This document shows, piece after piece, positions 1 through 9,064 of a stretch of 9,064 bases of DNA. Source of the stretch: a virus (Duplodnaviria; Heunggongvirae; Uroviricota; Caudoviricetes); IMG/VR virus record IMGVR_UViG_2872180393_000009. The stretch is one strand, 5' to 3'. Position numbers and translations under genes: made by a program. The notes under the pieces are model-generated. The model made no database searches and had not been told where the DNA came from. It was given only the letters and a program-made list of their open reading frames with translations. Position 1 is the stretch's first letter. Every line of letters begins with the position of its first letter.

Positions 1-303
1 TTAACGCGTATTTTTCAGCGACTCCTGTGCAAAATACGCTGTTGCTTTTTTTAATATATCTCGCTCAAGGCGAGCTTCATTTAACGCCTTACGCAGTTGC
101 AGAATTTCAGATTCCAGTTCAGCCACCGTGCGGGAACCAGGAGTACCGAGCCCTTTTCTGGCGGCGGTAACCCATTGTCCTAAAGTGTCTTCAGGAAGGG
201 ATAATCGGGAAGCGCCTTCACTGATCGAAAGTTGATTTTCAAGAACCGTTCTGACAGCTTCGGCTTTGAACTCTTTAGAGTAACGTTGGGTTTTTCTGCT
301 CAT
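1..303 (-). CDS. IS600 OrfA (IS3-family transposase N-terminal HTH protein)
   Basis: 100-aa ORF beginning MSRKTQRYSKEFKAEAV, which I recognise as IS600 OrfA. A good AGGAG Shine-Dalgarno lies upstream on the minus strand (reverse complement of 310-314). Confidence 0.9.
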   Translation of the reverse strand: MSRKTQRYSKEFKAEAVRTVLENQLSISEGASRLSLPEDTLGQWVTAARKGLGTPGSRTVAELESEILQLRKALNEARLERDILKKATAYFAQESLKNTR

Positions 304-367
304 TATTAGCTCCTTCTGATGCCATTCTATTTCAGGAAGGAGTGTCCGTTAAACTCAGGCTACCTCA
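1..367 (-). mobile_element. IS600 (IS3 family), partial copy in inverted orientation; left inverted repeat ends at 367, rest of element lies beyond the window start
   Basis: Positions 301-367 are the reverse complement of 6768-6834 (left end and orfA start of the complete copy) with one mismatch. The orfA product is identical to the 6832-7134 product except one residue (D vs G). Confidence 0.85.
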
Positions 368-600
368 ACGAAGTTGGCGTTCAGTTTGGCAGCGCGGCTG
401 AAATGGCTATTTTGCAGGAAATTATCAACGCCAGGTACGAAAGTATCTTGCCCACCATTCTGATCAGTAACCTCTCACCGGAAGAGTTGTGGGCGTTCAT
501 CAGTCCCCGAATTGCCGACAGGATCACAGACGGGGGACGCAACTGGTTGTCGTTTAACTGGCCCAGTTACCGTTCTCGTATCAGAGGTGTGGCTGCATGA
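368..600 (+). pseudogene. DnaC-like helicase loader, C-terminal remnant (about 77 codons) truncated at its 5' side by the IS600 end
   Basis: Translation NEVGVQ...LSFNWPSYRSRIRGVAA matches the C-terminus of E. coli DnaC (DEIGVQ...FNWDSYRSRVTGKEY, recalled from memory). The ORF is only open upstream because it runs into the IS inverted repeat. The stop overlaps the next gene's start (ATGA, 597-600). Confidence 0.75.
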
Positions 601-1826
601 CAACTCCAGTATGGCGTAACGATGACCTTGAAGGCGCTGTCATCGGCGCGTTCTTTCTGCGCGGAGCAGATCCTGAAGTGATGGATATTCTGGCCACACT
701 ACCGGCGGACGTTTTTTCTGTACGACCGTACCGGGATATCTACACAGGCATCTGCAGACAGGCCCGTGTGTCCGGCGTGATTGATCCTGTGCTGTTGTGC
801 AATGAGATGCCAGAACTTGCCCCGGTGATTACTGATACCGGGCGTAAAACCTGGGTGAAGTCATCTCTGGAACACTATGTTGCAGCACTGCGACGCAATG
901 CCGCACTGCGTGATGCAGAAAAAACACTGAACGAGGCATTACAGAAATTACGCGATGCGCATACCTGTGAAGCAGCTGAAGATGCTCTTAAGGATGCACA
1001 GAACATGATGGCCTCATTGTCGACGGAAAAGGGCGTTATTCAGTCGGTACATATTGATGATGTGCTTCCGGAGGTGGTTGAGCGTGTTGAATGCCGGAAT
1101 CAGGGACTGGAGAAATCCAGGACGTTGATGACCGGTATTGATGAACTGGACGCAAAAACAGGCGGCATGGAGCCCGGCGACCTGGTATTTATTGCGGCTC
1201 GTCCTTCGATGGGGAAAACCGAACTTGCGCTGGACATCATCGACAAGGTGACTGAGCAGGGGCATGGTGTGCTTCTGTTCACCATGGAGATGGCGAACAT
1301 CCAGATTGGTGAACGTATGGTGTCTGAGGCTGGAGGGATGCCAGTATCACGCCTGAAATCTGTGGCTCACTTTGAAGATGAAGACTGGGCGCGTTTCTCA
1401 CAAGGGGTGGGGCGGATGACCGGGCGCAATATCTGGATGGTGGACCAGGCGAACCTGACCATTGATGAGATATGCGCAACAACGAAACACCATCTGATTA
1501 AACATCCGGAAACGGCGCTGGTGGTGGTTGATTATCTCGGGCTGAAAAATTCCGGAGAAATAGAGGCGGATGCAGACATCATTCTGATGCTTTACAGGGA
1601 TGAAGTGTACAACCCGGATACACAGGCCACAGGCATAGCAGAAATTAATATCACGAAACAACGTAACGGTTCTCTGGGGACGATTTACCGGCGTTTTTAT
1701 AACGGACATTTTCTGCCTGTGGACCAGGAAAGCGCACAGGTTCTTTCCACCCCAATGCGGCAGCCCCAGCCGCGCAGATACAGCAATACACGTACCGACA
1801 GCAGTAAGATGGAGCGTTTCTTTTGA
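597..1826 (+). CDS. DnaB-family replicative helicase (prophage-encoded), apparently lacking the H3/H4 motif region
   Basis: 409-aa ORF with Walker A AARPSMGKT, Walker B-like VVVDYL and the conserved EDEDWAR, LYRDEVY and GIAEI..KQRNG blocks found in E. coli DnaB. About 50 residues between DYL and EIEADAD seem to be absent relative to DnaB. Confidence 0.85.
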   Translation: MTTPVWRNDDLEGAVIGAFFLRGADPEVMDILATLPADVFSVRPYRDIYTGICRQARVSGVIDPVLLCNEMPELAPVITDTGRKTWVKSSLEHYVAALRRNAALRDAEKTLNEALQKLRDAHTCEAAEDALKDAQNMMASLSTEKGVIQSVHIDDVLPEVVERVECRNQGLEKSRTLMTGIDELDAKTGGMEPGDLVFIAARPSMGKTELALDIIDKVTEQGHGVLLFTMEMANIQIGERMVSEAGGMPVSRLKSVAHFEDEDWARFSQGVGRMTGRNIWMVDQANLTIDEICATTKHHLIKHPETALVVVDYLGLKNSGEIEADADIILMLYRDEVYNPDTQATGIAEINITKQRNGSLGTIYRRFYNGHFLPVDQESAQVLSTPMRQPQPRRYSNTRTDSSKMERFF

Positions 1827-1837
1827 ACAACCAGACA

Positions 1838-2080
1838 ATGACTTTTACCCCTGAACAATTGCGTAAACACGCGCAGGAAATGTTGCGACAGGCGGAACAA
1901 CTGGAAAAAACAGGTGTAACAAAAGATGCCATTCGTCGGGATATGGTGCCAGCGCTCAGGGAACTGATGCAGGCGAAACATCGCGCACAAAAAGCGGTGG
2001 ATGAGCTCGTTGATTGTGTGGCAGAGCTGGAAACCAAAGTTGGAAAGTTTGAAAAAATGGTGCAGGAGGTGCTGCGCTGA
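1838..2080 (+). CDS. Hypothetical small phage protein (about 80 aa, charged, probably helical), nin-region position
   Basis: ORF MTFTPEQLRKHAQEMLRQAEQLEK..., tightly packed between the helicase stop (1824-1826) and the rusA start (TGATG overlap at 2078-2082). No clear Shine-Dalgarno; start could instead be TTG at 1823. No family recognised. Confidence 0.5.
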   Translation: MTFTPEQLRKHAQEMLRQAEQLEKTGVTKDAIRRDMVPALRELMQAKHRAQKAVDELVDCVAELETKVGKFEKMVQEVLR

Positions 2081-2451
2081 TGCGCCATGAGTTTATTTTA
2101 CCTTATCCGCCGACGGTGAATACTTACTGGCGACGTCGTGGCTGCACATATTTTGTATCAAAAGTTGGTGAGCGTTATCGCCGTGATGTGACGCTAATTG
2201 TTCGCCAGCAGCGGCTGAAATTAAACCTGTCCGGAAGGCTGGCGATAAAGATTATTGCAGAGCCACCGGATAAGCGCCGTCGTGACCTGGACAATATCCT
2301 GAAAGCACCACTGGATGCGCTGACGCATGCCGGACTACTCATAGACGACGAGCAGTTTGATGAAATCAATATTGTGCGCGGTCAGCTCGTTCTTGGTGGG
2401 CGACTGGGCGTGAAGATTTACGAAATCACAGGTGATAACGATGGCGCGTGA
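2080..2451 (+). CDS. rusA: RusA-family Holliday junction resolvase
   Basis: 123-aa ORF with [10 protein letters not shown], matching the RusA catalytic region (PDRRRRDLDN in E. coli RusA, from memory). Typical position between replication genes and Q in lambdoid phages. Confidence 0.9.
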
Positions 2452-2827
2452 TATTCAGCAGGTTATGGAACGGTGGGGGGCTTGGGCTGCAAACACTCAT
2501 GAAGATGTATCCTGGGCGTCGATCGCTGCTGGTTTTAAAGGGTTAATTCCGTCGAAAGTGAAATCACGCCCTCAGTGTTCTGATGATGATGCAATGATAA
2601 TTTGTGGCTGTATGGCCCGGTTGAACAAGAAAAATCAGGATTTGCACGATTTGCTGGTGGATTATTACGTAGGTGGAATGACTTTTATGAGTCTGGCACG
2701 GAAACATGGGTGTTCGGATACCTGTATTGGCAAGCGCCTGCAGAAAGCGGAAGGGGTTATTGATGGCATGTTGATGATGCTTGATATCAGGCTGGAGATG
2801 GACAGATACGTAGAACGAATTATGTAG
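2441..2827 (+). CDS. Q: Late-gene antiterminator Q (short QuuD/DLP12-type family)
   Basis: Translation [23 protein letters not shown]...[18 protein letters not shown]...[23 protein letters not shown] resembles my recollection of the ~127-aa DLP12 QuuD antiterminator. ATG at 2441 overlaps the rusA stop by 11 nt; the ORF track's GTG at 2432 is less likely. Confidence 0.8.
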
Positions 2828-2831
2828 GTGC

Positions 2832-2861
2832 TTGACCAGACACATTGTCCGGGGCTATATT
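2832..2861 (+). promoter_or_regulatory. Candidate late promoter pR' (sigma70-like TTGACC-N17/18-CTATAT/TATATT)
   Basis: TTGACC at 2832-2837 and a TATAAT-like hexamer at 2855-2861, starting 5 nt after the Q stop codon, the canonical location of pR' in lambdoid phages. Confidence 0.4.
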
Positions 2862-2922
2862 CCTCACGCGCCAGCAAAATCTGGCGTCGGGATTGGAACC
2901 CCGGATAGAGACCGCGACAGAC

Positions 2923-2945
2923 ACACGCCGCGAGCGTGTTTTTTA
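2923..2945 (+). terminator. Candidate tR'-like intrinsic terminator
   Basis: 6-bp stem ACACGC/GCGTGT (2923-2928 / 2934-2939) with a 5-nt loop, followed by a T-run (2939-2945), about 60-80 nt downstream of the candidate pR'. Confidence 0.4.
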
Positions 2946-3307
2946 TTGTCGTATGCACGCGCACATCTGAATTATGGTGGGGCGCATGGGGGAGCTGAAA
3001 AGCTCGCCGGTCGGTTTCCCGGTAGTTCCAACCCTGTGCGTCTCACCACCCGATGATTGGAACCTGACGGTGTTGACAGTTTCAGGTTTGCAGTTTACAT
3101 TTCCCCGCGGTGCTCAAAACACCTCGAAAGCGGTATCCACACCCGATAGCCATGTGGTTTTTTTGTGTCCAGAATTCTTGGTTTATGACCGGGTGTGCGG
3201 CTAATACAATACCAGCAATGGAAATACGCCCGCCGACTTTCGACGGTTTTGAGCGCCCGGTCACCCTCTCAAAAGGGGTAAATCAAAATATTCGAAAGGA
3301 CATGTCT

Positions 3308-3871
3308 ATGAATCGCACGTCTATTGAAAAACTCCCGTCACTTACGCATAACCATCTTCCTGTCATGACAACAGAGCTGCTGGCTGATTTGTACGGAACA
3401 GAGCGCCAGCGTTTGACAAACAATTTCAATCGAAACAAAGAACGGTTTATAGAAGGTAAACATTTTTTCCTGATAGAAGGTGATGCGTTACGAGAGTTGA
3501 AGAACGAAAACTCTTTAAGAGTTTCTGTGAAAATTGCCCGTAACGTTCGCTCCCTCATCCTCTGGACAGAACGTGGCGCAGCCCGTCACGCCAAAATGCT
3601 CGAAACCGATCAGGCGTGGGAAGTGTTCGAAAAACTGGAAGACTGTTATTTCAACCAGAAACAGCCACCAGCGGCACAAAACACATCTATCGAAAATGAT
3701 GGATGCGCATTACTGAGCCACTTCGATAAACACGGTCAGGTTGAGTTCACGGAAAAGGTACCCGCCGATGCGATGGTATGTACTCTGGAACGGTTTAAAT
3801 TTTATCTGGAGCAACACGGGTGGATCGTTGCCCGTAAAGAGCAACTGGTGGAGCGGTTGATGCGGTTTTAA
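3308..3871 (+). CDS. ORF6N-domain (antirepressor-like DNA-binding) protein with an uncharacterised C-terminal half
   Basis: ATG at 3308 has AAGGA 7 nt upstream. The N-terminal segment PVMTTELLADLYGTERQRLTNNFNRNKERFIEGKHFF...WTERGAARHAKMLETDQAWEVF fits my recollection of the ORF6N domain consensus. The ORF track's upstream extension from 3110 has no RBS and non-protein-like composition. Confidence 0.6.
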   Translation: MNRTSIEKLPSLTHNHLPVMTTELLADLYGTERQRLTNNFNRNKERFIEGKHFFLIEGDALRELKNENSLRVSVKIARNVRSLILWTERGAARHAKMLETDQAWEVFEKLEDCYFNQKQPPAAQNTSIENDGCALLSHFDKHGQVEFTEKVPADAMVCTLERFKFYLEQHGWIVARKEQLVERLMRF

Positions 3872-3984
3872 AAATTTTTTCCGAAAACTTTACGATCGTA
3901 AAAAGTTGAATATCCTGTTAAGAGTGGTTACTACGCCACACAGAAACGGCACAGGACGTTAAACGTGCTGGTGGTCAGATGAGT

Positions 3985-4013
3985 TTGCAGATGTGATGAC
4001 ATATGGTTATTAT
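3985..4013 (+). promoter_or_regulatory. Candidate sigma70 promoter for the tRNA array (TTGCAG-N17-TATTAT)
   Basis: TTGCAG at 3985-3990 and TATTAT at 4008-4013 with a 17-nt spacer, about 10 nt upstream of the first tRNA 5' end. Confidence 0.35.
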
Positions 4014-4022
4014 TCTGCCTCC

Positions 4023-4099
4023 GGCCCTTTAGCTCAGTTGGTCAGAGCGAGCGACTCATAATCGCCAGGTCGCTGGTTCAAGTCCAGCAAGGGCCACCA
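4023..4099 (+). tRNA. tRNA with CAU anticodon, most likely tRNA-Ile2 (ileX/ileZ-like) rather than tRNA-Met
   Basis: Cloverleaf read by eye: acceptor GGCCCTT/AAGGGCC, D-arm AGCTCAGTTGG, anticodon loop CTCATAA, T-arm GGTTCAAGTCC, 3' CCA encoded. Close to E. coli ileX as I recall it, including C4-G69 and C5-G68. Confidence 0.85.
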
Positions 4100-4100
4100 A

Positions 4101-4177
4101 CCACCACTAGCTCATCCGGATAGAGCATCAACCTTCTAAGTTGACGGTGCGAGGTTCGAGTCCTCGGTGGTGGGCCA
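4101..4177 (+). tRNA. tRNA-Arg (anticodon UCU, decodes AGA)
   Basis: Acceptor CCACCAC/GTGGTGG (unusual C1-G72), D-arm TAGCTCATCCGGATAGAGC, anticodon loop CTTCTAA, T-arm GAGGTTCGAGTCCTC, encoded CCA. Starts 1 nt after the previous tRNA. Confidence 0.8.
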
Positions 4178-4179
4178 GC

Positions 4180-4255
<76 letters not shown>

Positions 4256-4258
4256 TAT

Positions 4259-4333
<75 letters not shown>

Positions 4334-4946
4334 GCGAGATTTGAGACGAAGGTTGTTATTTGCACTGACACAATATTGTGTGGGAATGTCTGACTCCTTA
4401 CCATCTCCTGTTCTGTGATGTTGTTTTGTTGCAGTTCCAGTGCTCTTTTTTCAGCACCAGAATGGTGCATTGTCGGTCAGGTTACGTAGTGAACCTCTGG
4501 CAGGGGACTGATGATTCATCATTCTGGTGTTGTAAATATCTCTTCGGACAACTTACAAAATATTCTAAGCAAACCCCGGGAACACACTCTTAACTGCCTT
4601 GGTTGGCGGTTTTTTGTACAGTGCTCGGTATGTGTGAGCTGGAAATCAGATTTTGCATGGACTGGAATCATGCTGTTATTTAGGGGCGAAGAACTGGCTT
4701 TTTCTTCCGCCTTCTCACCAGTAATGATTAGAAAAATAATGAAATGCCCCCTCCGGGGAGGAGGACCGTAGAAAAAAGGACCCGCCAGCAAAAACATTGG
4801 GGATGAACAGCTTTCGCTACTCAGATTGCTGGCGGGTAAAGTTCCTCATGAATTAAGAATGCTACGCGATCTTTTTTAATGGAAATGAAAATTATTGTCA
4901 ATTAGACGTGCGTGTTTTTTCATACAATATTGGTAAAGGTGATTCA

Positions 4947-4980
4947 GGCCATCAGAGTTTTGCTGATGGCCTTTTTTCTT
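4947..4980 (+). terminator. Strong rho-independent terminator upstream of the holin gene
   Basis: Perfect 9-bp stem GGCCATCAG/CTGATGGCC (4947-4955 / 4963-4971), 7-nt loop, followed by TTTTTTCTT (4972-4980). Confidence 0.6.
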
Positions 4981-5013
4981 TCCGATAGCACAGGTCTGTC
5001 GGGGGGGCGGGAT

Positions 5014-5229
5014 ATGTATCAGATGGAAAAAATATCAACAGGCATTGCCTACGGCACCTCCGCCGGCAGTGCCGGCTACTGGTTTTTGCAGTGGTTGGAT
5101 CAGGTCAGTCCGTCACAGTGGGCTGCGATTGGTGTGCTGGGAAGTCTGCTTCTGGGGCTTCTGACTTATCTGACGAATCTGTATTTCAAAATAAGAGAAG
5201 ATAAGCGTAAGGCTGCGAGAGGTGAATAA
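5014..5229 (+). CDS. S: Class II holin / pinholin, phage 21 S-like, with dual-start motif (Met1 at 5014, Met4 at 5023)
   Basis: 71-aa product [71 protein letters not shown] is near-identical to my recollection of phage 21 S. G-rich Shine-Dalgarno-like stretch upstream; stop overlaps the endolysin start (TAATG). Confidence 0.85.
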
Positions 5230-5726
5230 TGTCGCCATCATTACGCAAGGCTGTTGCAGTTGCTATTGGTGGCGGGGCTGTTGCTATAGCATCTGTGTTA
5301 ATCACTGGCCCAGGTGGTAACGATGGTCTGGAAGGTGTCAGCTACATACCATACAAAGATATCATTGGTGTATGGACTGTATGTCACGGACACACCGGAA
5401 AAGACATCATGCCTGGTAAAACGTATACCGAAGCAGAATGCAAAGCTCTCCTGAATAAAGACCTTGCCACTGTCGCCAGACAAATTAACCCGTACATCAA
5501 AGTCGATATACCGGAAACAACGCGCGGCGCTCTTTACTCGTTCGTTTACAACGTGGGCGCTGGCAATTTCAGAACATCGACGCTTCTTCGCAAAATAAAC
5601 CAGGGCGATATCAAAGGCGCATGTGACCAGCTACGTCGCTGGACATATGCTGGCGGTAAGCAATGGAAAGGGCTGATGACCCGTCGTGAGATTGAGCGTG
5701 AAGTCTGTTTGTGGGGGCTGCAATGA
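5229..5726 (+). CDS. R: SAR (signal-anchor-release) endolysin, phage 21 R-like lysozyme
   Basis: 165-aa product with an N-terminal Gly/Ala-rich SAR helix ([20 protein letters not shown]) and a T4-lysozyme-like catalytic region ([22 protein letters not shown]). Near-identical to phage 21 R as recalled. Confidence 0.9.
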
Positions 5727-6187
5727 GCAGAGTCACCGCGATTATCTCCGCTCTGGTTATCTGCATCATCGTCTGCCTGTCATGGGCTGTTAATCATTAC
5801 CGTGATAACGCCATTACCTACAAAGAGCAGCGCGACAAAAACGCAAGAGAACTGAAGCTGGCGAACGCAACCATTACTGACATGCAGCAGAGACAGCGTG
5901 ATGTTAATGCACTCGATGCTAAATACACGAAGGAGTTAGCTGATGCGAAAGCTGAAAATGAAACTCTGCGCGCTGATGTTGCCGCTGGTCGTCGTCGGTT
6001 GCACATCAAAGCAGTCTGTCAGTCAGTGCGTGAAGCCACCACCGCCTCCGGCGTGGATAATGCAACCAGCCCCCGACTGGCAGACACCGCTGAACGGGAT
6101 TATTTCACCCTCAGAGAGCGGCTGATGACGATGCAGATGCAACTGGAAGGGGCACAGGAGTATATCCGCACTCAGTGCATTAAGTAG
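5723..6187 (+). CDS. Rz: Rz i-spanin (inner membrane spanin subunit)
   Basis: [34 protein letters not shown]... is highly similar to lambda Rz as recalled. ATG at 5723 overlaps the endolysin stop (ATGA). Confidence 0.9.
5943..6125 (+). CDS. Rz1: Rz1 o-spanin (outer membrane lipoprotein), embedded in the +1 frame of Rz
   Basis: 60-aa [45 protein letters not shown]... with lipobox VVGC and a proline-rich segment, similar to lambda Rz1 as recalled. Confidence 0.85.
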
Positions 6188-6229
6188 CCTTTTTATCGTG
6201 GTAAACATTTCGCAGGGTATGAGGTATTT

Positions 6230-6580
6230 ATGCCATCACTAATCCCACGTGCCTGCCGTAAGCGTGGATGTGCAGGTACAACCACAGACAGTTCGGGTTA
6301 CTGCGATAAACATCGCGGTGAAGGCTGGGTGCAGCACCAGCGCGGACTGAGCCGCCACCAGCGTGGCTATGGCTCAAAATGGACGGTGATTCGTGCCCGT
6401 ATTCTGAAGCGCGATAAAGGTCTGTGTCAGTTGTGTCTGCGTGTCGGTGTGGTGAGCGAGGCGAAAACCGTCGACCACATCATCCCGAAAGCGCATGGCG
6501 GAACAGACGCAGACAGCAACCTGCAGAGTCTGTGCTGGCCCTGCCATAAAGCGAAAACAGCGCGCGAACGAATCAGGTGA
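6230..6580 (+). CDS. HNH endonuclease (phage packaging-associated type)
   Basis: 116-aa ORF with Cys pairs (CRKRGC, CQLC, CWPC) and the HNH core DHIIPKAHGGTDADSNLQSLCWPCH. GAGG Shine-Dalgarno 5 nt upstream. Sits just before the putative cos/terS region as in HK97-like phages. Confidence 0.8.
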   Translation: MPSLIPRACRKRGCAGTTTDSSGYCDKHRGEGWVQHQRGLSRHQRGYGSKWTVIRARILKRDKGLCQLCLRVGVVSEAKTVDHIIPKAHGGTDADSNLQSLCWPCHKAKTARERIR

Positions 6581-6602
6581 TAATTATTCTCACTTGTAGG
6601 GA

Positions 6603-6651
6603 GGGGCGGGGCAAATCCCTGTGACCTGACGTCTTCCGGACTGCCCGCCCC
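6603..6651. repeat. GC-rich dyad GGGGCGGG ... CCCGCCCC with 33-nt spacer; candidate cos/packaging recognition element
   Basis: 8-bp perfect inverted repeat at 6603-6610 and 6644-6651, located between the HNH gene and the terS start. Assignment as cos is positional inference only. Confidence 0.3.
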
Positions 6652-6695
6652 GTCAAATTTTTACACCCGCGAAATTAAAAATTTCAGGATTTGAC

Positions 6696-6767
6696 ATGTC
6701 AGGAAAATCTGTTGCACCCGGAAGGGGAAGAAAGCCGAAGCCGACTACCCGTAAGGAGCTGGCAGGC
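6696..6767 (+). pseudogene. Terminase small subunit (P27-family-like) N-terminal 24 codons, truncated by the IS600 insertion
   Basis: ATG at 6696 encodes MSGKSVAPGRGRKPKPTTRKELAG, ending exactly at the IS600 left inverted repeat, whose first triplet TGA gives an immediate stop. The GRGRKPKPT motif is typical of P27-type TerS N-termini as recalled. Confidence 0.5.
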
Positions 6768-6831
6768 TGAGGTAGCCTGAGTTTAACGGACACTCCTTCC
6801 TGAAATAGAATGGCATCAGAAGAAGCTAATA

Positions 6832-7134
6832 ATGAGCAGAAAAACCCAACGTTACTCTAAAGAGTTCAAAGCCGAAGCTGTCAGAACGGTTCTTGAAAAT
6901 CAACTTTCGATCAGTGAAGGCGCTTCCCGATTATCCCTTCCTGAAGGCACTTTAGGACAATGGGTTACCGCCGCCAGAAAAGGGCTCGGTACTCCTGGTT
7001 CCCGCACGGTGGCTGAACTGGAATCTGAAATTCTGCAACTGCGTAAGGCGTTAAATGAAGCTCGCCTTGAGCGAGATATATTAAAAAAAGCAACAGCGTA
7101 TTTTGCACAGGAGTCGCTGAAAAATACGCGTTAA
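6832..7134 (+). CDS. IS600 OrfA
   Basis: 100-aa ORF MSRKTQRYSKEFKAEAVRTVLENQLSISEGASRLSLPEG..., with an HTH-like N-terminus and a leucine-zipper-like C-terminus typical of IS3-family OrfA. Confidence 0.9.
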   Translation: MSRKTQRYSKEFKAEAVRTVLENQLSISEGASRLSLPEGTLGQWVTAARKGLGTPGSRTVAELESEILQLRKALNEARLERDILKKATAYFAQESLKNTR

Positions 7135-7169
7135 TCGAACAATGGCGACAACAATTTCCCATTGAAGCG

Positions 7170-7988
7170 ATGTGTCAGGTATTTGGTGTATCCAGGAGCG
7201 GTTATTACAACCGGGTACAGCATGAACCCTCAGACAGAAAACAAAGTGATGAGCGGCTAAAACTGGAGATTAAGGTGGCACATATCCGCACTCGCGAAAC
7301 ATATGGAACCCGGCGGCTCCAGACGGAGCTGGCAGAGAATGGCATCATCGTTGGTCGTGACCGACTGGCACGTCTTCGTAAGGAGCTAAGGCTACGCTGT
7401 AAGCAGAAACGCAAGTTCAGAGCGACTACGAACCCGAACCACAATCTGCCAGTTGCGCCAAATCTGCTGAACCAGACGTTCGCTCCTACAGCACCAAATC
7501 AGGTCTGGGTGGCGGACCTGACGTATGTTGCCACACAGGAGGGATGGTTGTACCTCGCTGGCATCAAAGATGTTTATACGTGCGAAATTGTCGGCTACGC
7601 CATGGGAGAGCGCATGACAAAAGAGCTGACAGGTAAAGCCCTGTTTATGGCGCTCAGGAGCCAGCGCCCACCTGCCGGGCTAATCCACCACTCTGATCGA
7701 GGTTCACAGTACTGCGCATACGATTACCGGGTCATACAGGAGCAGTTTGGTCTGAAAACATCAATGTCGCGTAAAGGTAACTGTTACGACAACGCTCCGA
7801 TGGAAAGCTTCTGGGGAACGCTGAAAAATGAGAGCCTGAGCCACTATCGTTTTAATAACCGGGATGAAGCCATCTCAGTAATACGGGAATACATTGAGAT
7901 TTTCTACAATCGTCAGCGTCGTCACTCTCGTCTGGGGAATATCTCCCCGGCAGCCTTCAGGGAAAAATATCATCAGATGGCTGCTTAA
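7170..7988 (+). CDS. IS600 OrfB (transposase catalytic DDE domain), normally expressed as an OrfAB fusion by -1 frameshifting
   Basis: 272-aa ORF containing DDE-region motifs (WVADLTYV, HHSDRGSQY, CYDNAPMESFWGTLKNE). The orfB frame is open upstream from the A AAA AAA G slippery run at 7083-7090 inside orfA. Confidence 0.9.
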   Translation: MCQVFGVSRSGYYNRVQHEPSDRKQSDERLKLEIKVAHIRTRETYGTRRLQTELAENGIIVGRDRLARLRKELRLRCKQKRKFRATTNPNHNLPVAPNLLNQTFAPTAPNQVWVADLTYVATQEGWLYLAGIKDVYTCEIVGYAMGERMTKELTGKALFMALRSQRPPAGLIHHSDRGSQYCAYDYRVIQEQFGLKTSMSRKGNCYDNAPMESFWGTLKNESLSHYRFNNRDEAISVIREYIEIFYNRQRRHSRLGNISPAAFREKYHQMAA

Positions 7989-8098
7989 AAAAAGAACAAA
8001 TGGTAGTATCCGCTATTGCCAGTACACCTCAAAGGGGTTCATGTATTAAAAGTCGACGGAGTTAAAGAACGTTGGGTCGACTTAATGGAGATTTCAAA

Positions 8099-9064
8099 AT
8101 GGGCAAGAAAGAACAAGGATCATTACCTCTCCCAAGAGGAGTAACTATTCGTCAATACAAGAATTGCTCTACATTAGTTGTAACCTTCACATATAAAGGG
8201 GTTCTTTGCAGAGAACCCTTACCAAGGCTGGAAGCTAACGCAAAGGGGATTAAGTATGCAGAGCGACTTCTCGGAGAAATAAAAAACCAAATCTGTGATG
8301 ATTCATTCGATTTTTCAAAATACTTTCCAAACTCCAGGAAGTTAGCATTATTTGGAATGGTAAAGAAGAATAAAAGTGTGAGAGATTACCTAGATGAATA
8401 TCTGGAAATTTGCAAAAACAGAAAGTTATCTCCTTCAACAATAAATGGATATGAAAAATGCGTATCTGCATTATCGGAACTACATAAGCTACATGTCGTT
8501 GACCTGACACCAGCAATATTAAAAAAATGGATTTCAAGAAGAACAACAAAACTTAAGACCATAAGAAACAATCTGTCATTTTTAAGAAGCGCAGTAGATG
8601 AAGCGGTCACTGACGGACTTATAACGATAAATCCTGTAAAACTGGTTAGTGCAAGTAGATACCATGCGGTTAACCATACAGCCAATGCTGATGATTATGA
8701 AGTGGATCCCTTCACGCCAGCAGAGGCAACAGCTATCTACAACGCCTGTCTCTATCAGGAATGGAGAAATCTTTTTTGTTTCGCATTCAATACAGGCCTT
8801 CGAAGCTCAGAATTATGTGCATTGCGTTGGTCTGATATTGATTTTATTGGGCATACCGTTCACGTACAGGTCGCTTCTGTCGTTGGTGTAATAAAAGGAA
8901 CCAAAACAAAAGCAGGGACCAGAAAAGTTGAATTAAACAATGAAGCCATAATGGCATTGCAGTCCCAGAAATCATTTACGATGATGAGAAGTGATTTTGT
9001 ATTCAGTGATCCAAAAACACGCAAGCCGTGGGCTAATTCAGCTGCGATTCGCAAGAAAGCCTGA
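8099..9064 (+). CDS. int: Tyrosine recombinase / phage integrase, probably C-terminally truncated (likely pseudogene)
   Basis: ATG at 8099 with GGAG 8 nt upstream. N-terminal arm-binding-like segment (LPRGVTIRQY...TFTYKGVLCREPLP), box I arginine (FNTGLRSSELCALRWSDIDF) and the KGTKTKAGTRKVEL hairpin are present. The ORF stops 17 aa after FVFSDP, before the expected HxxR and catalytic Tyr. AT-rich relative to the rest of the window. Confidence 0.7.
   Translation: MGKKEQGSLPLPRGVTIRQYKNCSTLVVTFTYKGVLCREPLPRLEANAKGIKYAERLLGEIKNQICDDSFDFSKYFPNSRKLALFGMVKKNKSVRDYLDEYLEICKNRKLSPSTINGYEKCVSALSELHKLHVVDLTPAILKKWISRRTTKLKTIRNNLSFLRSAVDEAVTDGLITINPVKLVSASRYHAVNHTANADDYEVDPFTPAEATAIYNACLYQEWRNLFCFAFNTGLRSSELCALRWSDIDFIGHTVHVQVASVVGVIKGTKTKAGTRKVELNNEAIMALQSQKSFTMMRSDFVFSDPKTRKPWANSAAIRKKA

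Follow-up and report, generated by a model that had tools for sequence, protein, structure and literature searches.

A phiP27-like prophage remnant bracketed by inverted IS600 copies in Shigella boydii, a probable product of recombination between dispersed IS600 elements

The window analysed here, a whole stretch of 9,064 nt, is 100% identical to positions 3,890,138-3,899,201 of the Shigella boydii chromosome CP026846.1. It is very probably a junction-rich piece of chromosome, in which a defective phiP27-like lambdoid prophage, originally located beside ypjA, was fragmented by IS600. The two copies in the window would then be the scars of homologous recombination (presumably dependent on RecA) between dispersed IS600 elements, and also its substrates, but not the ends of a transposon. 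The order of the locus is ygcN'-IS600-'dnaC...terS'-IS600-'xis-int-ypjA'. No record with this locus was returned by a search of the whole window against 5,426 complete E. coli genomes, and the database annotation of its lineage-specific helicase is Shigella boydii.

The initial annotation described two inverted IS600 copies with their left ends (IRL) pointing inward, at 1-367 on the minus strand and 6768-8031 on the plus strand, and an inverted-repeat search bore this out, the arms 1-367 and 6768-7134 being 99% complementary over 367 nt. Copy 1 is cut by the window edge, leaving its IRL-proximal 367 bp with orfA at 1-303 (minus strand; repeat search and alignment). It had been called partial, which is true of the window but not of the source chromosome, where it is a full element of 1264 bp (8508-9771 in L004). 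Leftward extension, which had been proposed as a check, yielded this complete element, with its right end (IRR) abutting a truncated ygcN whose 3' part is present and whose codons 1-135 are absent there. Copy 2 is complete within the window (1264 bp, TGAGG...CCTCA; repeat search, Pfam and identity) and carries on the plus strand orfA (6832-7134, Pfam HTH_Tnp_1), an A7G slippery run that is a predicted -1 frameshift site (7083-7090), and orfB (7170-7988, Pfam HTH_21, rve, rve_2 and rve_3). Its termini, IRL TGAGGTAGCC... and IRR ...GTACACCTCA, are imperfect inverted repeats. The length (the class is about 1.2-1.5 kb), the TG...CA terminal repeats, the orfA HTH with the orfB DDE/rve domains, the predicted frameshift motif and the near-identity to IS600 are all those of an IS3-family element. 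Identity was judged against RefSeq-annotated copies rather than the ISfinder reference and is 99.1-99.8% over 1264 bp to IS600-annotated copies in E. coli RefSeq genomes (99.1-99.6% for copy 2), where near-identical copies are labelled [quoted passage not shown].

The two copies differ at exactly two positions in the 367-nt alignment, both of which had been noticed initially. IS position 56 is G in copy 1 and A in copy 2, giving AGGAG versus AGAAG upstream of orfA, and IS position 180 is A in copy 1 and G in copy 2, giving D39 versus G39 in OrfA. Over their full length the copies show 5 differences. The conclusion drawn from these differences, that the pair is not a very recent duplication, is a weak one, as the two need not have arisen by duplication of one another. 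The AGAAG Shine-Dalgarno occurs in CP026846.1 only, the sister genome CP119446.1 having AGGAG, and the initial suggestion that copy 2 may express OrfA less well is speculative. Both D39 (G39D, copy 1) and 1241A in the IRR of copy 2 are derived SNPs of the window's sub-lineage. A look-up of the OrfA D39 variant returned an unrelated contig only, because the relevant genomes record the gene as a fused OrfAB product.

Neither copy is flanked by the 3-bp duplication of a simple IS600 insertion. Read in IS orientation, the flanking triplets are CGT and GTG for copy 1 and GGC and AAG for copy 2; no 3-bp duplication was found within either copy, between the copies, or at the outer ends, where the plus-strand triplets are CAC on the left and AAG on the right. 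Control simple insertions of IS600 carry such duplications (GGT/GGT and CAT/CAT in E. coli, AAT/AAT in cas3 of CP026846.1). H15 and H25, which are different IS600-bearing prophages, served as duplication controls only. The missing duplications are explained by later recombination with other IS600 copies and do not argue against the identity of the elements. They do argue against both two simple insertions and a transposed composite element. Of the two findings that the initial annotation had named as counting against its reading, a solo left fragment and independent target-site duplications at both copies, neither was made.

The inverted geometry, two full-length copies and intact orfA and orfB in both are what would be expected if IS600-segment-IS600 had moved as a unit, through IS600 transposase acting on the outer (IRR) ends. 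The composite-transposon-like geometry noted initially thus stands, but the transposon reading does not. The outer ends share no 3-bp duplication, though simple IS600 insertions make one. The outer flanks are unrelated and are not the halves of one target, the right one being the xis-int end of the segment's own prophage family, and among the genomes examined the segment occurs at this locus only. We consider the composite-transposon reading effectively refuted and its probability very small indeed. Geometry alone is no ground for annotating IS-bracketed segments as composite transposons.

The outer flanks come from loci that are distant in an unrearranged chromosome. On the left is the 3' part of ygcN and on the right xis'-int-att-ypjA', and in E. 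coli E300082 ygcN and xis-int-ypjA are separated by about 134 kb and oriented the other way relative to each other. Immediately right of copy 2 (flank IRR-AAG...) is a small ORF remnant in the position of an excisionase gene, upstream of int, which keeps the last 36 of 69 codons (8032-8144, plus strand). It is followed by a tyrosine integrase pseudogene (8099-9064, plus strand; Pfam and comparison with sister strains), in which codon 322 has changed from TGG to TGA with loss of the catalytic C-terminus, the sister strains having 390 aa. Just beyond the right edge of the window are att and the 3' end of ypjA, which this integrase faces.

The other half of ygcN was located through a junction predicted before the search. 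A product made of the N-terminal part of ygcN, GTG and an IRL, YgcN(1-135)+CVR*, was found by exact-sequence look-up; in CP026846.1 it lies at a third IS600, about 131 kb to the right of the window. This third copy is preceded by ...GTCTGTG at its IRL, while the left copy of the window reads IRR-GTGGCGTT; intact ygcN has a single GTG. The GTG duplication of ygcN is thus split between copy 1 and an element 131 kb away, which points to an older large inversion, and the IRR end of copy 1 goes back to an earlier insertion in ygcN. For the roughly 130 kb that separate the window from the third IS600, collinearity was presumed because the distance matches. No representative with an IS read-through came out of a protein homologue search that used the N-terminal part of YgcN.

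Evidence for recombination across the two copies is that the segment between them exists in both orientations. Three independent complete S. boydii assemblies (L034, L035 and L036) have the order that we call isomer A, while the window, L003 and L004 have isomer B. Isomer A is the form of CP026845.1, CP026877.1 and JARKNR01, and isomer B that of CP026846.1 and CP119446.1. The same four junction 15-mers occur in isomer A and in the window with their inner partners swapped, so that the 6.4-kb segment is inverted, with 99.2-99.7% identity throughout and full-length IS600 copies in both isomers. Both orientations, identical junctions, swapped inner partners and intact repeats are the outcome expected of inversion by homologous recombination, for which the initial annotation had correctly proposed the pair as a substrate. 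The recombination is deduced from this swapping of junctions rather than seen as a mosaic in the sequence: the IS-internal SNPs are private to single genomes, and the crossover point in IS600 cannot be mapped from them.

A history of two independent simple insertions, in a prophage otherwise unrearranged and with no recombination, could appeal to the high activity of IS600 in Shigella (PMC7373316) and to the position of both breakpoints inside phage genes, dnaC and terS. This explanation is the least probable that we considered, with next to no chance of being right. Besides the lack of a target-site duplication at either copy, the gene on the left outer side is chromosomal and not from a phage, the orientation of the segment relative to int is wrong for any lambdoid prophage, and the opposite isomer exists. 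A separate origin of segment and integrase, from two different prophages, was also considered and rejected, since the orthologous segment is collinear with ypjA elsewhere and lies in canonical orientation beside the same integrase in isomer A.

The two orientations could also stem from faulty assembly, or every strain could be a mixed population that flips frequently, with no fixed difference between lineages. An inverted repeat of 1.26 kb on either side of 6.4 kb is well known to cause misassembly and heterogeneity within cultures, and short-read assemblies are blind to A versus B, since the two isomers share all four junction sequences. Each orientation is, however, found in three independent complete or near-complete assemblies, and two characters outside the repeats, the 162-nt helicase deletion and the TGA in int, occur with isomer B only. 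We therefore regard artefact or mixing as unlikely and a fixed inversion between IS600 copies as the better account.

As to its direction, isomer A has the canonical lambdoid order, with int opposite to the late and replication genes, which is also the arrangement in E300082. Its strains have retained the integrase at 390 aa and helicase DNA without the deletion, while the isomer B strains have in common the helicase deletion and the TGA in int. In other Shigella-type genomes the orthologous remnant is 99.2-99.75% identical and collinear with ypjA. The canonical order and intact integrase and helicase of isomer A suggest that the window is the derived flip, from A to B, a polarity that we infer from parsimony and linked derived characters, not from a rooted phylogeny. 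Orientation, helicase deletion and int stop codon together could serve as a lineage marker.

A programmed site-specific switch of the Hin/Gin/Fim type was rejected. No invertase gene was found in or beside the segment, where the only recombinases are the IS600 transposases and the nonsense-mutated tyrosine integrase, and the repeats are whole 1264-bp IS copies. It is very improbable, too, that the IS600-bracketed segment flips back and forth as a recurrent, reversible switch and was not inverted by a single accident, with an orientation that could have phenotypic consequences or be under selection in S. boydii. If it did, each flip would alter what is found upstream of the Q-tRNA-lysis block or of the xis'-int remnant, whether an IS600 end (with any outward promoter) or a neighbouring gene. 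The SNPs 78A and 159A, common to the two IS600 copies of L034, show that the copies do exchange sequence and would fit repeated recombination.

The gene content between the copies had been given correctly in the initial annotation (dnaC', helicase, RusA, Q, tRNAs, lysis genes, HNH and terS'); all genes are on the plus strand. The segment opens with dnaC' (368-600; sequence comparison), which retains the last 76 of 292 codons. Intact, the gene would encode a phage DnaC-like ATP-binding replication protein; its junction with copy 1 reads IRL-ACG... on the plus strand, that is, CGT-IRL in IS orientation. A DnaB-type replicative helicase (597-1826; Pfam and comparison) has an in-frame internal deletion of 54 aa (162 nt), leaving 409 of 463 aa, and is probably inactive. 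Next come rusA (2080-2451) and the antiterminator gene Q (2441-2827), both identified by ORF, homology and Pfam, and a C4/isrK antisense-RNA module (2855-3270) that precedes a gene with an ORF6N domain (3308-3871, antirepressor-like; Pfam). Four phage tRNA genes (CAU, Arg-UCU, Thr-UGU and Gly-UCC) occupy 4023-4333. There is no toxin ORF in the interval from the tRNAs to the holin (4334-5013), and there are no stx genes here. The lysis cassette (5014-6187) comprises holin (5014-5229), lysozyme (5229-5726), Rz (5723-6187) and the embedded Rz1 (5943-6125). An HNH endonuclease gene (6230-6580; Pfam and comparison) and a phiP27-like cos region lead to terS' (6696-6767), the first 24 codons of a phiP27-type small terminase, 95% identical to that of phiP27 and cut by IS600 at ...GGC-IRL. 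The helicase is internally deleted, the integrase has a nonsense codon, the terminase is truncated and structural genes are absent; the 6.4-kb segment is a dead, decaying remnant of a phiP27-like prophage.

The following history would account for the locus. Independent IS600 insertions in ygcN (with the GTG duplication), phage terS, phage dnaC and a T6SS vasL-like gene may have come first, followed by loss, next to an IS600, of the prophage early region from the 5' part of dnaC to within xis. Recombination among the IS600 copies of ygcN, terS and vasL would then have moved and inverted large blocks, two nested inversions being the minimal model. The outcome would be isomer A, kept by three sequenced strains, with ygcN' beside terS' and ygcN(N-part)-IS600-vasL' 131 kb away. 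Finally, the sub-lineage of the window would have arrived at isomer B when its two inverted IS600 copies crossed over and the 6.4-kb segment was flipped. The order of these events and their dependence on RecA are inferred, as is the fourth junction of the two-inversion model (terS 3' part-IS600-vasL 5' part), for which the best reference allele is only 97.8% identical and too distant for prediction of the exact product.

Neither a literature search by accessions, which gave no match, nor the literature searched more widely provided a description of the 6.4-kb flip or of the ygcN/terS/vasL rearrangement in S. boydii. Inversions brought about by IS elements are well documented for Shigella, and the S. 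boydii case is an ordinary one that adds no new principle. The locus is of interest as a clean and fully traceable example of the remodelling of Shigella chromosomes by IS600 expansion, displaying prophage decay, a split target-site duplication that marks an old inversion of >100 kb, and a later 6.4-kb re-inversion that separates S. boydii sub-lineages; otherwise it has little importance beyond bookkeeping.

Composite transposons of the Tn10 and Tn5 type consist of two inverted full-length IS copies around a passenger segment. The window resembles them in its two inverted full-length IS elements but differs in having no outer duplication, unrelated flanks and no sign that the unit ever moved. 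IS3-family elements transpose via a circle intermediate of one element. The window copies have the length, ends, orfA/orfB and A7G motif of annotated IS600 (IS3 family) and nothing substantially different. Compared with phiP27 (NC_003356), the dnaC-helicase-...-Q and HNH-cos-terS parts of the window are 93-95% identical, while the window keeps only a 6.4-kb remnant, and its integrase and att (ypjA) belong to another lambdoid group. The defective, IS-ridden Stx prophage of Shigella dysenteriae type 1 is likewise a non-inducible lambdoid remnant, with IS600 in its Q-lysis region (PMC7819885); the window differs from it in the absence of stx, in host species and in integration site (ypjA).

Close parallels are the IS-mediated inversions of Shigella. 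Five IS, IS600 among them, have expanded in all Shigella, where IS copies drive rearrangements and deletions (PMC7373316), and rearrangement rates are exceptionally high (PMC8072062). In S. dysenteriae 1 genomes 42 of 42 inversions were IS-associated (PMC7819885), and IS600-mediated inversion and re-inversion have been described in S. flexneri (PMC1550401). The S. boydii locus resembles these cases, in which inverted copies of an expanded IS bound inversions of <1 kb to hundreds of kb, nested inversion and re-inversion among them (PMC8072062, PMC7819885, PMC1550401, PMC7373316), and for S. flexneri 5b IS600 was named as a mediator, as is proposed here for the S. boydii window.

The two IS600 copies of the window form the inverted repeat described in the initial annotation: a repeat search paired 1-367 with 6768-7134 as arms of 367 nt with 99% complementarity, and the differences reported between the copies amount, within these arms, to just two mismatches, at IS positions 56 (AGGAG/AGAAG) and 180 (OrfA D39/G39). 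Copy 2 (6768-8031, plus strand) is 1264 bp long with ends TGAGG...CCTCA, is 99.1-99.6% identical to RefSeq-annotated IS600 elements, and carries orfA (6832-7134, plus; Pfam HTH_Tnp_1), an A7G slippery run (7083-7090, plus) and orfB (7170-7988, plus; Pfam HTH_21/rve/rve_2/rve_3). A whole-window search of 5,426 complete E. coli genomes did not find the locus. Exact lookup of the helicase protein, which is lineage-specific and named Shigella boydii by NCBI and UniRef, gave two complete chromosomes with the window's arrangement, CP026846.1 (100% identity; 9405-18468 of L004, the stretch around the window) and CP119446.1 (2 SNPs). In both, leftward extension of copy 1 (1-367, minus strand) gives a full-length IS600 and not a solo fragment; in CP026846.1 it spans 1264 bp (L004 8508-9771) and shows 5 differences relative to copy 2.

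The enclosed gene list was borne out by ORF, Pfam, tRNA and homology evidence. Between the copies lie dnaC' (last 76 of 292 codons), genes for a DnaB-type helicase, RusA, Q and an ORF6N protein, four tRNAs, holin, lysozyme, Rz and Rz1 genes, an HNH endonuclease gene and a phiP27-type terS' (first 24 codons). The first tRNA (4023-4099) was called Met (CAU) by ARAGORN, while its homologue in another sequence (L001) is tRNA-Ile in RefSeq; it is probably a lysidine-modified Ile2 tRNA, as is common among lambdoid phages. Several Rfam matches above gathering score were observed at 2855-3270 (plus), just downstream of Q and upstream of the ORF6N gene (3308-3871): c4-a1b1 (2855-2907), isrK (2868-2944), C4 antisense RNA (2970-3053) and sRNA-Xcc1 (3187-3270). 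This cluster resembles antisense-RNA modules of the P1/P7 immI or Gifsy isrK type, putatively controlling an antirepressor-like gene.

Outside copy 1 lies ygcP-ygcO-ygcN', in which ygcN, interrupted after ...AACGCCAC, keeps its 3' part but lacks codons 1-135. Outside copy 2, the flank starts within a 69-codon ORF at the excisionase position, the last 36 codons of which are kept, and continues through a tyrosine integrase and att to the 3' end of ypjA. In E. coli E300082, the ypjA site holds an intact lambdoid prophage whose late, lysis, Q and replication genes run opposite to int, and ygcN lies ~134 kb away in a relative orientation opposite to that of the window. The window thus brings together loci that ordinarily lie at a great distance, with the segment non-canonically oriented to int. 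The adhesin-like autotransporter gene ypjA itself (11494-17520 of L016, rightward of the window) is interrupted by an IS110-family element, which leaves a 3' fragment of 139 aa and a 5' part of 1389 aa; most of it is gone beyond the IS110-family element in L035, one of the chromosome stretches with the alternative arrangement described below.

Exact lookup of the HNH protein retrieved many complete genomes with an orthologous segment, 99.2-99.75% identical over window 1542-6674 and collinear with ypjA in the order ypjCB-ypjA'-IS-'dnaC-helicase-...-HNH-terS-terL-portal'. By identity and gene order, the segment is assigned to the ypjA prophage. The match to the 99%-identical ypjA-linked remnant ends at 6674, and the sequence is phiP27-like (95%) from 6675; from this change in similarity, 6674/6675 is read as a mosaic joint at the cos/terS boundary, between HNH and terS.

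Simple IS600 insertions bear 3-bp duplications (GGT/GGT in ISEc60, CAT/CAT in a helicase gene; E. coli), and as a control within CP026846.1, the IS600 in cas3 of the type I-E CRISPR-Cas system (731-1994 of L043) has an intact AAT/AAT; this cas3 insertion is missing in the sister genomes L042 and L045. Read in IS orientation, the window copies are bordered by CGT/copy 1/GTG and GGC/copy 2/AAG, and no 3-bp duplication was found within either copy, crosswise between them, or at both outer ends. Two undisturbed simple insertions are therefore ruled out, and so is transposition of a composite element. Of the earlier reading, the inversion substrate stands, and the pair has in fact inverted; the composite transposon does not, having no outer duplication.

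The inversion is seen directly in other chromosomes. The 90% cluster of the integrase includes a full-length 390-aa S. boydii protein, whose lookup gave three more complete chromosomes (CP026845.1, JARKNR010000001.1 and CP026877.1) with the order ygcN'-IS600(-)-[terS' HNH lysis tRNA Q rusA helicase dnaC', all minus]-IS600(+)-'xis-int-ypjA'. We call this canonical arrangement isomer A and that of the window isomer B. The four junction 15-mers are identical between these three and the window, with the inner partners swapped: in isomer A, terS' (...GGC) meets the left-copy IRL and dnaC' (...CGT) the right-copy IRL, while the window has the reverse pairing; the outer junctions, IRR/GTGGCG at ygcN' and IRR/AAGGGG at xis', are the same. 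Identical junctions with swapped partners point to a crossover between the two inverted repeats; intramolecular transposition would make new junctions, and the unchanged junctions speak against it.

In isomer A, dnaC' adjoins the xis-int end, which a single early-region deletion explains. Isomer A strains have an intact integrase and retain, as do related prophages, 162 nt of the helicase gene. In the window, the helicase (597-1826) lacks 54 residues within its DnaB_C domain through in-frame loss of these 162 nt; alignments from each side of the deletion point (~1542-1549) overlap by 8 nt, which suggests that short direct repeats mediated the deletion. The integrase gene carries a nonsense mutation and is a pseudogene (TGG-to-TGA at codon 322; the stop, 9062-9064, forms the window's last bases), its catalytic region running on in frame past the TGA in L004. 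The isomer B strains have both lesions in common. From the canonical order, the intact integrase and helicase DNA of A, and the shared lesions of B, we infer that A represents the ancestral form and B the derived one. Since dnaC, terS and the xis-position ORF are all truncated as well, and no structural genes are left at this locus, the phage segment is, judged by gene content, a dead remnant.

An older, larger rearrangement was also traced. If a simple insertion in ygcN gave rise to the left-copy IRR, the gene's 5' part should lie elsewhere, followed by GTG and an IRL and coding YgcN(1-135)+CVR+stop. This 138-aa sequence was found exactly in the protein collection and, in CP026846.1, lies ~131 kb rightward of the window, beyond cas3-cysHIJ-queD. 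The junction of this third IS600 (L043 10410-11673; about 4,029,934) reads ...GTCTGTG/IRL and that of the window's left copy IRR/GTGGCGTT, while intact ygcN reads ...GTCTGTGGCGTT... with one GTG. A single GTG duplication divided over two IS600 copies 131 kb apart is the hallmark of IS copies having recombined. Isomer A genomes (L042, L045) and further assemblies (L044, L046) have this junction of the third copy too, which makes it older than the 6.4-kb flip. At its other end, the third copy's IRR meets the 3' part of a T6SS vasL-like gene beside mucR-amiC-argA-recD, so that the element links this gene to the ygcN 5' part; by comparison with E. coli Eco_23-2667 (458 codons), the vasL-like gene is broken after codon 271. 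The flank triplet GTC there had no partner among the copies examined, implying a putative fourth recombined IS600 elsewhere. A minimal model would involve two nested inversions: the terS and vasL copies would recombine first, and the hybrid so formed would then recombine with the ygcN copy. All observed junctions and IS orientations follow from this model, which predicts a fourth junction, vasL(5')...GTC/IRL-IS600-IRR/GGC-terS(3').

Differences between the copies had been taken to mean that they are not a very recent duplication. As the copies are recombinant descendants of independent insertions, their SNPs say nothing of duplication age. The canonical IS600 states are G39 and AGGAG; OrfA D39 (copy 1) and IRR 1241A (copy 2) are present in both isomer B genomes and in no isomer A copy. 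AGAAG is found only in CP026846.1, whereas this copy has AGGAG in CP119446.1; OrfA translation may be affected in that single strain, and the inference of weaker expression is weak. Internal SNPs did not locate the crossover point within IS600 among the copies of isomer A and B genomes. The flanking copies of CP026845.1 (L034 856-2118 and 8670-9933) share 78A and 159A, a pair unseen together in other genomes, which suggests gene conversion or repeated exchange between inverted copies. The rare D39 IS600 also occurs in an unrelated contig (L014 10001-11157; GCA_000281795.1, AGRC01000028.1), where it sits in another prophage between genes for a Q-like (DUF1133) and an ORF6N protein.

IS600 is among the five IS expanded in all Shigella species, whose deletions and rearrangements are generally attributed to IS copies (PMC7373316), and rearrangement rates are exceptionally high in this genus (PMC8072062). 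In S. dysenteriae 1 genomes, all 42 of 42 inversions (0.7-400 kb) were IS-associated (PMC7819885), and IS600-mediated inversion, as well as inversion followed by re-inversion, was reported in S. flexneri in 2006 (PMC1550401). The locus is no new kind of element, and represents a well-resolved case of this already known IS-driven process.
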